From NCBI RefSeq assembly GCF_048403405.1, contig NZ_CP183129.1: a DNA stretch of 64,000 nucleotides. The stretch is one strand, 5' to 3'. The notes beneath the pieces are model-generated. The model did no database searches. It had not been told where the DNA came from and saw nothing but the letters and a program-made list of their open reading frames with translations. A program made the translations under genes and the position numbers. This DNA comes from Escherichia coli. GTDB lineage: Bacteria; Pseudomonadota; Gammaproteobacteria; Enterobacterales; Enterobacteriaceae. Each line of letters opens with the position of its first letter. Position 1 is the first letter of the stretch. Positions 1,067 to 61,074 of this stretch are shown here, in pieces.

Positions 1067-3813
<2,747 letters not shown>

Positions 3814-3836
3814 GGCATGCTCCAGGCCGAAAAAGC

Positions 3837-4493
3837 CTAGCGTAATGGAATGATATCGCCTTGCCAACCCTGTGATGAACGCTGACCGACTAACAATAAT
3901 GAACCACGATCGGCGCGAACGATGAGACGACCATGTTCATCCCATAGTGCACTGTTACCACGGGCATTTGCCATCAGCACGGCAATTGAGTACTGATGTG
4001 AAAAAAATTGTAAGCGGCGGGTAGATGCCAGTAGGTCGGGTTCCCCCAGACATTGCCCTGTCGTAAACAGTGAACAGGTCGGATCCATATCCATACCTTC
4101 CGGTTGTTCATCGACCACCGTGATGGTTCTGGAACGACGGCCCAGACATGCACCATGACTCTGATGGTAGATCCCTGGTGTTTTTCGCCACGGTGCGAAC
4201 ACCGCAATTCCACGAATAAAGCGATCGTTATATTCAACGGGAAGGCCGGCAATGATGGTCATTCGCCAGGTCGTTGCAGCATAACAAAGCGGGTCTAACA
4301 GCGAGAGATCGGGTGGGGCAGGAAGGGCACGTCGCGAATAATCACACCCCAGTAAAGAAAGCGATGGAAAAACTAACAGCTGACATTGTTGCCTGGCGGC
4401 GGCCCTCACAAACTCCAGATGATGAGCTACCTGTTCGGTCAGTGAGGTTTTACGAGGCTCATATTGCGCTGCTGCAACTTTCCAGAACGACAT
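3837..4493 (-). CDS. yobB: C-N hydrolase (nitrilase superfamily) protein
   Basis: 218-aa ORF in the conserved position between holE and exoX. Confidence 0.85.
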   Translation of the reverse strand: MSFWKVAAAQYEPRKTSLTEQVAHHLEFVRAAARQQCQLLVFPSLSLLGCDYSRRALPAPPDLSLLDPLCYAATTWRMTIIAGLPVEYNDRFIRGIAVFAPWRKTPGIYHQSHGACLGRRSRTITVVDEQPEGMDMDPTCSLFTTGQCLGEPDLLASTRRLQFFSHQYSIAVLMANARGNSALWDEHGRLIVRADRGSLLLVGQRSSQGWQGDIIPLR

Positions 4494-19833: not shown

Positions 19834-20625
19834 ATGGCTAACGCAGATCTGGATAAACAGCCTGATTCTGTATCTTCCGTGCTGAAAGTTTTTGGCATTT
19901 TGCAGGCGCTGGGTGAAGAGCGCGAAATAGGGATAACCGAGCTGTCGCAGCGCGTCATGATGTCAAAAAGCACCGTTTATCGCTTTTTACAGACCATGAA
20001 AACCTTAGGTTATGTGGCGCAGGAAGGGGAGTCGGAGAAATATTCCCTGACCCTGAAATTGTTTGAACTGGGCGCTCGCGCGTTACAAAACGTCGATTTA
20101 ATTCGTAGCGCAGATATCCAGATGCGTGAGATTTCCCGCCTGACCAAAGAAACTATCCACCTCGGCGCACTGGACGAAGACAGTATTGTTTACATTCACA
20201 AAATTGACTCTATGTACAATTTGCGCATGTATTCACGGATTGGGCGTCGTAATCCGCTGTACAGCACCGCAATTGGTAAGGTACTGCTGGCATGGCGCGA
20301 TCGCGATGAAGTGAAGCAAATTCTTGAGGGCGTGGAGTATAAACGCAGTACCGAACGGACCATCACCAGTACAGAATCGTTATTACCCGTTCTGGACCAG
20401 GTGCGCGAGCAGGGGTATGGCGAAGATAACGAAGAGCAGGAAGAAGGACTGCGTTGCATTGCGGTTCCGGTATTTGATCGTTTTGGCGTGGTCATTGCCG
20501 GTCTGAGCATCTCCTTCCCGACGTTGCGTTTCTCCGAAGAGCGTTTACAGGAATATGTCGCAATGTTGCATACCGCGGCGCGCAAAATTTCTGCCCAAAT
20601 GGGTTATCACGACTATCCATTCTGA
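19834..20625 (+). CDS. kdgR: IclR-family transcriptional repressor KdgR
   Basis: 263-aa ORF with N-terminal HTH and IclR effector domain. Confidence 0.95.
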   Translation: MANADLDKQPDSVSSVLKVFGILQALGEEREIGITELSQRVMMSKSTVYRFLQTMKTLGYVAQEGESEKYSLTLKLFELGARALQNVDLIRSADIQMREISRLTKETIHLGALDEDSIVYIHKIDSMYNLRMYSRIGRRNPLYSTAIGKVLLAWRDRDEVKQILEGVEYKRSTERTITSTESLLPVLDQVREQGYGEDNEEQEEGLRCIAVPVFDRFGVVIAGLSISFPTLRFSEERLQEYVAMLHTAARKISAQMGYHDYPF

Positions 20626-20632
20626 TGAGAGT

Positions 20633-20672
20633 AAGAACCTGTCTGAATATCAAACAGACAGGTTCTTTATTT
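20633..20672 (+). terminator. Rho-independent terminator of kdgR
   Basis: AGAACCTGTCTG-aatatcaaa-CAGACAGGTTCT followed by TTATTT. Confidence 0.7.
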
Positions 20673-20768
20673 AGCATGAGAAAAATAAAGTTGAAGGTGG
20701 CGTTATATTAAACGCACTTGCGATAAGAATATTTTACTCATGAGTGAGAATCTGGTTATTTATTACCC

Positions 20769-21384: not shown

Positions 21385-21672
21385 ATGAACGAAGTTGTAA
21401 ATTCAGGCGTGATGAACATTGCGTCTTTGGTTGTATCGGTGGTGGTTCTTCTTATCGGGCTCATCTTGTGGTTTTTTATCAATCGTGCCAGTTCACGGAC
21501 TAACGAACAGATTGAACTGCTTGAGGCGTTGCTGGATCAGCAAAAACGTCAAAATGCTCTGTTACGTCGTTTGTGCGAAGCAAACGAACCTGAGAAAGCA
21601 GATAAAAAGACCGTTGAGAGTCAAAAATCGGTTGAAGACGAAGATATTATTCGTCTGGTCGCCGAACGATAA
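21385..21672 (+). CDS. yebO: Small membrane protein YebO
   Basis: 95-aa ORF, N-terminal transmembrane helix. Confidence 0.8.
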   Translation: MNEVVNSGVMNIASLVVSVVVLLIGLILWFFINRASSRTNEQIELLEALLDQQKRQNALLRRLCEANEPEKADKKTVESQKSVEDEDIIRLVAER

Positions 21673-22341
21673 TCCTTCCTCAATCTTGAGTAACCCCGTC
21701 GTTGAAGGGTTACTCAATTCATCCTGATTATACGCACTGCCATGGTGCAACTGCTTCAAATTAAAACTCTGGTCTGACTTCAAATAATTATCATATTATT
21801 TATTTGCGTAACGGGATATCAGAAAAAGATATTTAGCCCATTAATTTATTAGGATGTTTACATCGGATTTGTGATTAAGTGTGGTATTATTTATTAGCGA
21901 AACGTTTCTCTCTTGATTTTTTTGCGCATTCATCAATTTTTCTTATTTTAAATTTACAATACCTTTGGCGATTGACTTCTCTTTGGGGTGATCGATAGCC
22001 GTTAACTGACTGTTTTATGAGAAAAAGTGATATAACTTTTTATTCATTGCATAGCAGAAAATGTGATATTGCACGCACTATGTAATAACTTCTCCCACTG
22101 GCCTGGAACAACTGAACTTATTGAACTATGTTAGAAAATACGTCAGTTTAAGTATCTGCCTGAACTGGCAAGGTTAAGCACAATGATATATCGGCGCGTA
22201 TTCCGTTGCATAAGTGTGCAAAAAAAGTGGAAGACGTATCGAGATTTGTGCGTCTGATCGAGACATGTTTAAAAATGGCTTGCCATAATTAACGTTGTAT
22301 GTGATAACAGATTTCGGGTTAAACGAGGTACAGTTCTGTTT

Positions 22342-22485
22342 ATGTGTGGCATTTTCAGTAAAGAAGTCCTGAGTAAACACGTTGACGTTGAATACCGCTT
22401 CTCTGCCGAGCCTTATATTGGTGCCTCATGCAGTAATGTGTCAGTTTTATCTATGTTATGCCTGCGGGCGAAGAAAACAATCTAA
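22342..22485 (+). CDS. yobF: Small protein YobF, co-transcribed with cspC
   Basis: 47-aa [50 protein letters not shown] ending 12 nt upstream of cspC. Confidence 0.85.
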
Positions 22486-22497
22486 GGAATTTTTCAA

Positions 22498-22707
22498 ATG
22501 GCAAAGATTAAAGGTCAGGTTAAGTGGTTCAACGAGTCTAAAGGTTTTGGCTTCATTACTCCGGCTGATGGCAGCAAAGACGTGTTCGTACACTTCTCTG
22601 CTATCCAGGGTAATGGTTTCAAAACTCTGGCTGAAGGTCAGAACGTTGAGTTCGAAATTCAGGACGGTCAGAAAGGTCCGGCAGCTGTTAACGTAACAGC
22701 TATCTGA
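22498..22707 (+). CDS. cspC: Cold-shock-domain protein CspC
   Basis: 69-aa [72 protein letters not shown]; RNP motifs. Confidence 0.97.
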
Positions 22708-22752
22708 TCGAATCCACTGATCTGAAGTGTGAATACGCTTCAATCTCGCTAT

Positions 22753-22780
22753 AAAGCCTCGTCGAATGCGAGGCTTTTTA
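22753..22780 (+). terminator. Rho-independent terminator of yobF-cspC
   Basis: AAGCCTCG-tcgaat-GCGAGGCTT followed by TTTT. Confidence 0.75.
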
Positions 22781-22872
22781 CTTTGCTTTATCTTCGCTCC
22801 AGTCGTTCGGATATTTGCCCGCCGCGTGATTCGCGTTACACTTGCGGCCTTTAGTATCCTGCCGGAGTTGTC

Positions 22873-24259: not shown

Positions 24260-24475
24260 CGGGGTATCCATAAAACACATCATCGCCCCCAGCAAACATG
24301 CATACATGAACGACAAACCGCGATGGTTTTCGCGTTCATGCAGGCATAGCGATTGATGTGCATATGGTCTCGCCTGACTGAAAGTGTTCAGTCCGTACGT
24401 GCCACGTTTTGCAACGAGTATGTTGACACGTACATTTCCGGAATCTGGAAATCGGCTACTCCCCAAATGAGGGCG
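24260..24475 (-). promoter_or_regulatory. yybP-ykoY manganese riboswitch in the mntP 5' leader
   Basis: Minus-strand leader contains the conserved GGGGAGUAG (revcomp of 24456-24464) and CAGGCGAGACC (revcomp of 24366-24376) aptamer elements; mntP riboswitch is established. Confidence 0.75.
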
Positions 24476-24673
24476 CAACCTTAACATATTTTGAGAATAT
24501 AAAACAACTGTTGGAATATATTATTTCATTGCTTTATTGATAACGATTTTCATTTAGATTTATATATCAATAAAACGTTAAAATAAATAACAAATAAGGG
24601 AAGGGGTAATATAGCCTAAGCTATGTCTGATTATTAAAAATACACTAAACATAGCTTTGGCTAAATTGATAAC

Positions 24674-25132
24674 TTATTGAGTTGAAACGAGAAGCTTATA
24701 AATTTTTTCCAGATCGTCGATATTTCGAACGCGGATTAACAGCCGACGCTGTTCTAATTGCATCACCAACACGCCATCTTCCGACAAGTTCATCGCTTTG
24801 ATTCGGCTATATTCAATCCAGACATTGGCGAAGAAAAAACCTTTTTGTTTAAAGATGATCTTCGGAACGCGGATCCAGAATATATAAAAACCCATCAGAG
24901 CCAGTGCACTTAATAACCATGTTGTTATTAGCGCGCCATGATTCGTGACGTTGTTATAGATAAGAATGACAATCAATCCGACGAAGATAACGCTATCGAT
25001 GCGACCACGCCGGAGCAAAGGAATTGCCAGCAGGGTGGGGCCGTTACGGCGGGGCATGATGAACTGATCGTAGATCGCGAAGGCCAGGAGTGCGGCGATG
25101 AAAAGAATCAGTACCAGGTCCGTGATTGTCAT
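24674..25132 (-). CDS. yobD: Inner membrane protein YobD (UPF0266)
   Basis: 152-aa hydrophobic ORF. Confidence 0.85.
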
Positions 25133-58156: not shown

Positions 58157-59632
58157 TTAAATATGATGAATAATCACTTTGTTGCCCCCCTCGCTTTTCG
58201 CTTCGCGTAAGGCTTTATCTGCTTCCGTCATGACAAGCGAGATATTACGTGTGTCACCCGTTGAAAAAACCGTGCCAATACTGATGGTCATTTGCTCAGG
58301 AACATCATATCTGTTACTAAAGCCGGTCAGGAGTTCGACATTTTTACGCATACGTTCCGCAATGATTTTTGCCTGGGCACTATTGAGTTCGGTAAATAGC
58401 AAGCCAAACACCTCACCCTCCAGTCGCGCTAAAATATCATCGGGGCGGATGCTTTGCTGGATAATATCGACAATTGAAACCAGCACTTTATCACCCACAC
58501 GATGTCCCCATTGGGCATTGATGCGTTTGAACTGATTAATATCAACCAGCATGACACAGAAGTCCTTAACAACAGGTCGCGACAATAATGACTCTACGCT
58601 GTTGAAAAAGTAGCGCCGATTATAAATATTGGTCAGCACATCATGAACTGCCAGTTTGCTGGAGAGTTGCAGTTCCTGAAAAATGTTATAAATCAGAAAA
58701 GACACAACAAACAGTTTACTGGAGACTTCAATCCCGCGACTGATATACCAGATGGTGTAATTATACTCATCCAGAGTTAGTAGAAGTAAGTTGCAGCATA
58801 GCGATGCCAGACATAATAATGCTATTAACGGCCATAGTTCGCTGGCTAATCGTGTACGCATGATAATAAAGAACAGTAAAAATGCCCACAGACAAACCAA
58901 TGTTTTTGTATAGTTGATTCCCCAGGTCGCAGTATGGTTGTCCGGACAGTAATCGACGACATACAAAGAATAGTCAGCGTTATAACTGCTCAGATTGTGT
59001 GCCAGAAGGGGAAAAACTAAAAAAGGAATCAGCGCCAGTAACAGAATGCCAGTTTTTTTCTTATTGTTGTCAAGGATGTTGTCTTTCCCATAACAAAAGA
59101 GCGCCAGCGAGGTTAAACAAATGAAACTGAGTTGGCGGAAAATATAGAAAATAGAAACATCATTCGACTTTGTCTGGATCAGTGTACTGCCGTTGATTGG
59201 TTTATGGATAATTACAATGGTTTCAACTAAATAGATAAGGCCACTTAAAAATGCAAGGCTTAAAATGAGTGTTGGTAAAATTTGTTTGTTAGTGAAATAC
59301 TTCATTAACATGAAAAGAAAAATGACGGCGTTAAGGAAAAACAAAGCCACAACAACCATCAGGTAATTCATCTGTGGGATGAGTTTTACATTCGTGTTTT
59401 CGTTATATAAGGTAGTAATGCAAAATAAAATTAACGTCAGCAATAAGCTGAAAATAAAAAAGCCTTGAGCTTTTAATTTTTGTGTACCCATAGAAGCCAT
59501 AAAAAGGAGAGCAATGTGAGTGCTGGATTTTATTGATGGCAGAGATATATAGTTTTGACCAGGATCAATTTTCGTTAACGATAAAAAATATTTAAAGAAT
59601 AACCCCAGGGAAACACGTGTTGACCGAATCAT
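58157..59632 (-). CDS. cdgI: GGDEF-domain membrane protein CdgI/DgcI (YeaI)
   Basis: 491-aa ORF with N-terminal multi-helix membrane domain and C-terminal GGDEF-like domain. Confidence 0.85.
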   Translation of the reverse strand: MIRSTRVSLGLFFKYFLSLTKIDPGQNYISLPSIKSSTHIALLFMASMGTQKLKAQGFFIFSLLLTLILFCITTLYNENTNVKLIPQMNYLMVVVALFFLNAVIFLFMLMKYFTNKQILPTLILSLAFLSGLIYLVETIVIIHKPINGSTLIQTKSNDVSIFYIFRQLSFICLTSLALFCYGKDNILDNNKKKTGILLLALIPFLVFPLLAHNLSSYNADYSLYVVDYCPDNHTATWGINYTKTLVCLWAFLLFFIIMRTRLASELWPLIALLCLASLCCNLLLLTLDEYNYTIWYISRGIEVSSKLFVVSFLIYNIFQELQLSSKLAVHDVLTNIYNRRYFFNSVESLLSRPVVKDFCVMLVDINQFKRINAQWGHRVGDKVLVSIVDIIQQSIRPDDILARLEGEVFGLLFTELNSAQAKIIAERMRKNVELLTGFSNRYDVPEQMTISIGTVFSTGDTRNISLVMTEADKALREAKSEGGNKVIIHHI

Positions 59633-59778
59633 TTTTCCGAATGATTGTTTTCTGGAACTAAATTGTGTAAAGGTTATGCTGTCATATTTAAAGCGATTGT
59701 AAGCTAATGTATGTAATAAATGAGATAATTTACAGTGAGCTAAAAATCAGCCAGGCGATAATGACCCGGCTGATAGTT

Positions 59779-61074
<1,296 letters not shown>

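Follow-up and report, generated by a model that had tools for sequence, protein, structure and literature searches.

The 669-bp spacer between yebO and yobF in Escherichia coli very probably serves the yobF-cspC operon as a composite control region, to which the 3' end of the mgrB-yebO unit is attached. According to published experiments, transcripts of yebO mostly end at a hairpin shortly after the gene, with the RNA 3' end at 21721, and some continue across the spacer into yobF-cspC. Most yobF-cspC mRNA begins within the last 50 bp, from two overlapping promoters of the sigma70/sigmaS type, and OxyS and CyaR target the resulting leaders, which measure 26 nt in E. coli and 48 nt in Salmonella. 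In vitro, RNA polymerase binds at more than one site of the spacer, and H-NS binds it as well. The first ~200 bp are Escherichia-specific filler, and the remaining ~450 bp are an ancestral upstream region composed of fixed-position blocks with unconserved sequence between them. All positions given here refer to the window, i.e. the whole stretch of 64,000 nucleotides of contig NZ_CP183129.1 that was analysed.

The spacer occupies exactly 21673-22341, between the end of yebO at 21672 and the start of yobF at 22342, in the order kdgR, yobH, mgrB, yebO, spacer, yobF, cspC, rlmA. Its K-12 equivalent (NC_000913.3) is 1907592-1908260; K-12 positions were converted as window = 22342 - (K-12 v3 position - 1907591), v2 coordinates of K-12 being 1976 lower. 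The region is 100% identical to that of strain 7/2, and the spacer shares 98.2% identity with the K-12-derived strains ER1821R and EPI300. No feature is annotated within the 669-bp gap in NC_000913.3 or in the window-identical strain, and the K-12 RefSeq record of 2026 lists no ncRNA there.

The GC content of the spacer is 0.357, versus 0.495 for the window, and just 0.8% of the 669-bp segments across the 64 kb are as AT-rich. Ten tracts of at least 8 bp consist of A and T only (2.2 expected per 669 bp), and seven homopolymer runs of A or T reach at least 5. The initial annotation, which described about 670 bp of AT-rich non-coding DNA from yebO to yobF, was therefore correct in extent and composition. 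Other AT-rich stretches of the window are found at 24400-24700 (GC 0.25-0.31 near 24500, upstream of mntP) and at 58900-59950; the lowest GC content of any 669-bp segment, 0.326, belongs to the one starting at 59139. Hairpins after kdgR (20620-20738) gave a sub-threshold Rfam match to a eukaryotic snoRNA (19.9 bits, E = 0.36), which is almost certainly due to chance.

On both strands of the spacer 20 open reading frames of at least 10 codons are present, and these were followed across relatives. None is intact beyond Escherichia, apart from two that are kept in merely 2-3 of 11 Salmonella/Citrobacter sequences, in agreement with the earlier statement that no ORF of note lies here. A hidden small protein gene is nevertheless worth weighing in a neighbourhood rich in small proteins (MgrB, YobF, YobH), where several of the frames have 20-39 codons and one of 22 codons on the minus strand (22143-22211), the sole one intact in all three other Escherichia species, is thus found in all four. 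This frame lacks a Shine-Dalgarno sequence ahead of it (before 22211), another frame that runs antisense over the conserved yobF-proximal core is frame-shifted in Buttiauxella, conservation of all of them stops at the border of Escherichia, and the RefSeq record of 2026 shows no annotation here. Such a gene is extremely unlikely.

The composite control region was followed through the family with a YebO-seeded scan of Enterobacteriaceae, which delivered 80 loci with one genome per species; the block comparison covers 76-78 of them. The order mgrB-yebO-spacer-yobF-cspC is universal among the scanned loci, and the spacers fall into two length classes. Short spacers of ~590-745 bp occur in Escherichia, Salmonella, Citrobacter, Klebsiella, Raoultella, part of Enterobacter and others, with Intestinirhabdus (441 bp) as the outlier of this class. 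Long spacers of ~1455-1581 bp are found in Lelliottia, Leclercia, Kosakonia, Buttiauxella, Phytobacter, Cedecea and many Enterobacter. The additional DNA of the long class is an ORF for a Lactamase_B_2 protein (metallo-beta-lactamase fold) of 331-335 aa, located 16-20 bp after yebO, for example at 3308-4303 in locus L009 and 3310-4317 in locus L029, and present in ~30 other loci. The gene is missing from Escherichia, Salmonella, Citrobacter and Klebsiella, and a weak C-terminal remnant is kept in the short spacers of Enterobacter hormaechei and E. quasihormaechei. A corresponding remnant in the E. coli spacer was sought and rejected (best tblastn E = 7.9). Because of this distribution the Lactamase_B_2 gene is probably ancestral and was probably lost several times, and the length and AT-richness of the spacer would then be due in part to a neighbour gene that was lost or replaced, and not to function.

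The first ~200 bp of the spacer can be aligned just within Escherichia. Within them the AT-rich filler at 21722-21880, the most AT-rich portion of the spacer, is covered by blastn in 3 of 76 loci, those of Escherichia. This filler may mainly serve as a loading platform for H-NS. A genomic-SELEX site for H-NS, bound in vitro, is marked within the yebO-yobF spacer (PMC3946193), which supports the suggestion of nucleoid-protein binding in the initial annotation, and both the AT content and the A/T tracts are those of AT-rich regions bound by H-NS. In a clinical urine isolate (CP141749, locus L086, ~360-1130) an IS1A element is inserted in the filler, ~60-85 bp after the yebO stop codon, and FDAARGOS_1279 (CP069957, locus L087, 1284-2075) carries an IS1 between yobF and cspC. 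These natural insertions recall the IS insertions in yobF-cspC that were selected in ageing laboratory colonies (PMC13162491).

Conservation differs strongly from one part of the spacer to another. The last 98 bp (22244-22341) share 84-98% identity with E. coli in all 76 loci (median 0.908), whereas the median is 0.609 for the segment from -300 to -99 relative to the yobF ATG and 0.729 for the coding DNA of yebO. The coding DNA of yobF (22342-22485) is as conserved as that of cspC (median identity to E. coli 0.938 versus 0.932), in many genera (loci L003-L082) matches to the YobF protein extend no further than residue 38, 26 or 17, and the Rfam model of the cspA leader also covers the yobF ORF. 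Since the DNA is conserved, the protein matches are truncated and the cspA model overlies the ORF, this suggests a constraint on the yobF region at the RNA or DNA level, beyond its protein.

The conserved core at 22244-22341, on the plus strand, comprises two overlapping promoters and the 5' UTR of yobF with the Shine-Dalgarno sequence GAGG at 22326-29, as defined by conservation, consensus scans and mapped starts. The upstream promoter, GAGACA-18-CATAAT (-35 at 22260-65, -10 at 22284-89), leads to a start at 22294. The downstream one, TTGCCA-17-GATAAC (-35 at 22280-85, -10 at 22303-08), leads to starts at 22315-22318, is invariant in 74-76 of 77 loci, and was already given as a spacer promoter (window 22280-22308) by Shimada et al. 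2014 (PMC3946193). In both promoters the hexamers are separated by 16-18 bp and preceded by TG, as is usual for the sigma70 type, and the published starts at 22315-22318 and at the equivalent of 22294 agree with what is expected of such promoters, a start 6-8 nt after the -10 hexamer.

Several data sets place the main E. coli start here: a sigmaS ChIP-seq study gives the yobF start as 1905641 (v2), i.e. window 22316, tagRNA-seq gives 1907615-1907618, and SMRT-Cappable-seq gives 1907617 with a transcription unit of 1907153-1907617. As the mapped starts are at 1907615-1907618, the main yobF leader of E. coli measures 24-27 nt. In Salmonella, the primer of a 5'-UTR reporter begins with GTTGTATG, equivalent to window 22294 and 48 nt before the yobF ATG (PMC10965054), which agrees with the consensus promoter GAGACA-18-CATAAT. 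The promoters yobFp1 and yobFp2 together with an internal cspCp8 are listed in EcoCyc, as cited by a 2026 paper, and the short yobF leader is a target of the small RNAs OxyS and CyaR. RpoD holoenzyme forms more than one peak in the "670 bp spacer" in vitro (PMC3946193). The earlier reading as a promoter region is supported by these multiple published polymerase peaks and by the mapped starts, which precede the ATG by 26 nt in E. coli and by 48 nt in Salmonella. In a low-magnesium study a transcriptional reporter of yobF was silent; the size of its upstream fragment is not stated for yobF.

Further observations concern the surroundings of the core. RpoN holoenzyme binds near it in genomic SELEX (PMC8743547). 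A sigma54 promoter as the cause of this peak was rejected: the best plus-strand match of the spacer to TGGCAC-N5-TTGCW has 3 mismatches, and matches across the window are at chance level (311 versus 333 expected). At 22247-22262 the sequence TGTGCgtctgaTCGAG resembles a CRP half-site, with its centre 61.5 bp from the start at 22316 on the upstream side, and is noted as a lead only; the CRP genomic-SELEX paper mentions yobF once. A family-invariant GATC (22256-22259) lies directly upstream of the -35 hexamer GAGACA (22260-22265) of the upstream core promoter.

The initial annotation had also considered a long leader, and as the main leaders are short this holds for a minority of transcripts only. 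A long structured leader of the thermosensor or riboswitch type could be expected from the published report that YobF is induced by heat post-transcriptionally, from the match of the Rfam cspA thermoregulator model (RF01766) at 22322-22782 (139.7 bits, gathering threshold 78), and from read-through transcripts that include the whole spacer. The two main leaders, however, have just 26 and 48 nt, and the Rfam match begins at 22322, with only 20 nt within the spacer and most of its score from the coding part of cspC. Single-sequence folds across the spacer are no better than shuffles (z-scores -0.66 to +1.28), and RNAalifold on 76 sequences yields nothing beyond one weak helix of -7.4 kcal/mol within the core, with no conserved structure upstream of it. 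Conserved RNA structure in the spacer was rejected on these folds; a structured leader is very unlikely overall, and upstream of 22294 it is already largely refuted. A leader of ~268 nt in Salmonella, deduced from the transposon and start coordinates in Table 1 of PMC10965054, was likewise rejected, because the authors' own 5'-UTR primer starts 48 nt before the ATG. In that table (Salmonella 4/74) an "insertion in cspC" at 1893137 is inconsistent with a start at 1893683 and a 48-nt leader; the coordinate is probably a typing error. With the 48-nt leader the two "5'-UTR" insertions of the same study therefore fall at the 3' end of yobF.

At the other end of the composite control region lies the terminator of yebO on the plus strand (21687-21721), recognized from the sequence and from Term-seq. 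Its 10-bp stem is formed by TGAGTAACCC (21687-21696) and GGGTTACTCA (21707-21716), and the RNA 3' end is at 21721. The tail after the hairpin, AUUCAUCC (AUUCA), is not U-rich as in intrinsic terminators with a hairpin and U-tract, and the hairpin was not called in a consensus terminator scan; the hairpin at this position differs from genus to genus. The end is listed as the "primary" 3' end of yebO at K-12 1908212 (window 21721), apparently in all three Term-seq sheets (PMC7815308). SMRT-Cappable-seq reports a "novel" unit b1825|b1824|b1823 (yebO-yobF-cspC) from the yebO start at 1908567, and because this unit runs through all three genes, some transcripts cross the whole spacer.

Adams et al. 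2021 (PMC7815308) list a second 3' end, labelled "orphan", on the plus strand at K-12 1907716 (window 22217). It precedes yobF by 125 nt and the main yobF start by 99 nt. In one Term-seq sheet it has 264,852 reads, with 46,490 for the yebO end and 3,055,420 for the cspC terminator (PMC7815308), i.e. ~5.7 times the reads of the yebO terminator within that one sheet. It was called in one of three growth conditions, that of the second sheet (PMC7815308), which by its row counts is probably LB at OD 2.0. For an end to be kept in this catalogue, the nearest feature upstream had to be a dRNA-seq start, or such a start had to occur within 200 bp, in either case at a distance of more than 20 bp (PMC7815308). 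Because the orphan end passed this rule, a start exists on the plus strand somewhere in 21673-22196. The tables of SMRT-Cappable-seq contain no start near 22139, and the Cappable-seq supplement has no entries at spacer coordinates.

The suggestion that other unannotated transcripts are possible is supported by the yebO-yobF-cspC read-through unit and by the orphan end at 22217. The spacer as a whole does not reduce to a single promoter in front of yobF, since read-through, the orphan 3' end and an H-NS site are all reported for it.

The orphan end falls inside one of a series of conserved blocks between filler and core. Block D (22208-22220) is the palindrome GCATAAGTGTGCA, and blocks B and D are two copies of one 13-bp palindrome, GCATAAnTRTGCA. 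In 64 of 77 loci the downstream copy sits at -134; good upstream copies (block B) are found at -290 to -305 in 57 of 77. With 121 matches versus 3.1 in shuffles, the palindrome occurs at these two positions only and nowhere else in 520 bp. Most genera possess both copies, which are intact in Klebsiella and Enterobacter for example, whereas E. coli keeps only the one at -134; its block B (22044-22056) is a degenerate copy with 7 of 13 matching positions. A promoter at block B was rejected, its score being equal to background.

Between the two palindromes lies block C (22104-22139, plus strand), TGGAAC-17-TATGTT with hexamers at 22104-22132, an upstream TG and a conserved C at -13, and a predicted start at ~22139 (~-204). 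Its family consensus reads cTGGAcg..GAA..TGagCTATGGT (TGGACG-17-TATGGT). With the position weight matrix, block C has a median score of 7.45 and the mapped proximal promoter one of 7.3; the 90th percentile of the background is exceeded by block C in 91% of loci, and 68 of 77 have the 17-bp spacing. A C at -13 favours sigmaS polymerase (PMC3141248), and this polymerase prefers the spacer in vitro, though on the strand antisense to yobF; block C may be a distal, sigmaS-leaning promoter that starts near 22139. The palindrome, at -134 and with its copy at ~-300 in most genera, could bind a putative dimeric protein on either side of block C, and this protein would determine whether a transcript from block C ends at 22217 or proceeds into yobF. 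Further upstream, block A2 (21922-21949, plus strand) is promoter-like in E. coli (TTGCGC-16-TATTTT, score 6.8, start predicted at ~21956); the family version is TTGAGG-17-CATTAT, with CATTAT in 53 of 77 loci, and only 36% of loci exceed the 90th percentile of the background. As readings of the boxes, the consensus sequences of IHF, Fur, CytR, marbox, DnaA and OxyR were compared by eye; none fitted the invariant positions of the boxes, and no claim is therefore made for any of them.

The same elements could instead mark an independent small RNA gene, transcribed from block C to a 3' end at 22217 (~79 nt) and either trans-acting or a by-product of regulated termination. The 264,852 reads of the orphan end, which was kept on account of a start more than 20 nt upstream, fit such a gene, as does block C, which equals the mapped promoter in promoter-likeness and conservation; that the end was called in one condition only suggests regulation. 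On the other hand, the RNA from 22140 to 22217 does not fold significantly (z = 0.25) and lacks both a conserved structure and a terminator of the hairpin-plus-U kind, the sequence between blocks C and D is unconserved, and K-12 RefSeq annotates no ncRNA there. The 3' end could also come from processing of yebO read-through RNA. We regard a small RNA gene as possible, though doubtful.

Returning to the composite control region, its most upstream conserved element is box A (21896-21911), AGCGAAACGTTTCTCT, a half-palindrome resembling operators of the LacI family, identified by conservation and by comparison with known operators. Of 78 loci, 71 share the 10-mer CGAAACGTTT of this box without change, between -380 and -582 relative to the yobF ATG. 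Long-class spacers have it ~60 bp past the Lactamase_B_2 gene, and Klebsiella and Raoultella are devoid of the box. Compared with K-12 operators, box A matches that of rbsD in 15 of 16 positions, the PurR box of purH in 9 of 16 and the Cra boxes of fruB in 10 of 16. The match of 15 of 16 holds in Escherichia, Salmonella and Citrobacter. In the family-majority version, ATCGAAACGTTTTTAT, only the left half and the centre resemble rbsD (13 of 20), and the purH box is equally close. From these comparisons we infer that box A could be the operator of a LacI-family regulator, with RbsR as the best candidate in Escherichia, Salmonella and Citrobacter. Genomic SELEX of RbsR reported 5 sites, and the literature examined contains no link of RbsR to yobF or cspC and no published protein binding on box A or the palindromes. 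The rbsR and cspC mutants of Salmonella share a succinate-growth phenotype (PMC10965054), which is treated as a lead only, because no paper examined links RbsR to the yobF-cspC promoter.

The blocks also bear on a rival view, that only the last ~100 bp are functional and the rest is neutral filler left after gene loss, which binds H-NS and polymerase by virtue of its AT-richness. Much of the 5' part of the spacer would suit this view: its first ~200 bp align only within Escherichia, the corresponding position holds the Lactamase_B_2 gene in other genera and a weak remnant in Enterobacter hormaechei, and a clinical isolate tolerates IS1A there. Moreover, every directly mapped start falls in the core, and a consensus promoter scan of the AT-rich spacer gave 3 matches versus 3.0 expected by chance. 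Neutral DNA would hardly be expected, however, to preserve blocks A to D in 57-71 of ~77 species amid ~61% identity, to hold blocks C and D within about 2-3 bp of a constant distance from the ATG (box A shifts by ~200 bp), to contain the palindrome 121 times instead of 3.1 at only two positions, or to carry an abundant RNA 3' end inside block D. On balance neutral filler upstream of the core is unlikely.

Taken together with the composite control region, the distal elements could form a previously unrecognised, family-wide module of ~450 bp, with an RbsR-type operator, a sigmaS-leaning distal promoter and a palindrome pair whose putative binding protein would decide between a stop at -125, yielding a ~79-nt RNA, and entry into yobF-cspC. 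As a complete scheme this is improbable at present. Among the points against the proposed distal elements are that at family level box A resembles the rbsD operator in its left half and centre only, and that the sigmaS signal in vitro is antisense to yobF: sigmaS polymerase favours the forward-strand spacer probe 2.44-fold over sigma70 polymerase, and likewise favours the antisense-of-cspC probe. The strongest promoter-like match in the spacer is also on the minus strand (22171-22145, TTGCCA-15-TAAACT, score 8.8). If true, the module would make the amount of the RNA chaperone CspC depend on ribose/nucleoside status and on growth phase, and could explain the same succinate-growth phenotype of rbsR and cspC loss in Salmonella (PMC10965054). 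CspC is a global RNA chaperone that feeds into the control of RpoS and PhoP. Selection has repeatedly favoured its loss, in E. coli colonies that age as well as in Salmonella that grows on succinate. The control of cspC transcription is poorly described beyond the two proximal promoters, and the conserved elements could reveal missing inputs.

Among known systems, the cspA family (RF01766) is close in kind: the operon encodes a CspA paralogue, and its leader is highly conserved and regulated after transcription. It differs from cspA-family leaders in that a small ORF, yobF, occupies the leader, and a comparison with the upstream region of the paralogue cspE revealed no shared elements. Box A AGCGAAACGTTTCTCT resembles the RbsR operator of rbsDACBK, the 16-bp palindrome AGCGAAACGTTTCGCT of rbsD, in 15 of 16 positions and in the same CG centre, but is separated by ~390 bp from the nearest mapped start, downstream of it, and does not overlie a promoter, and its right half drifts family-wide to GTTTTTAT.

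The gal operators OE and OI form a two-operator repression loop that brackets a promoter. The palindrome copies are similarly placed, ~89 bp upstream and ~75 bp downstream of the predicted start of block C; they differ from gal in a separation of ~160 bp and in the loss of the upstream copy in E. coli, and a loop between them would be pure inference.

The orphan end at 22217 belongs to a list of 3' ends upstream of ORFs (PMC7815308). As it lacks terminator-like sequence, processing or a protein roadblock are the likely causes. The closest precedent for the spacer as a whole is the work of Shimada et al. 2014 (PMC3946193), who describe the same spacer with its H-NS mark and several RpoD peaks, among H-NS-marked spacers that have several constitutive sigma70 promoters; the 847-bp mngB-cydA spacer is the other example. 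That survey was made in vitro at low resolution and mentions neither conserved blocks nor RNA ends nor the part specific to the lineage. The yebO-yobF spacer is a real, largely known and ordinary regulatory region that is unusually long and modular; to the earlier description the present comparison adds unannotated elements of familiar kinds. They comprise a family-wide block map, a box like that of RbsR, a distal block that resembles a promoter, a palindrome in two copies that coincides with a mapped RNA 3' end, and a probable origin of the 5' third in gene loss.
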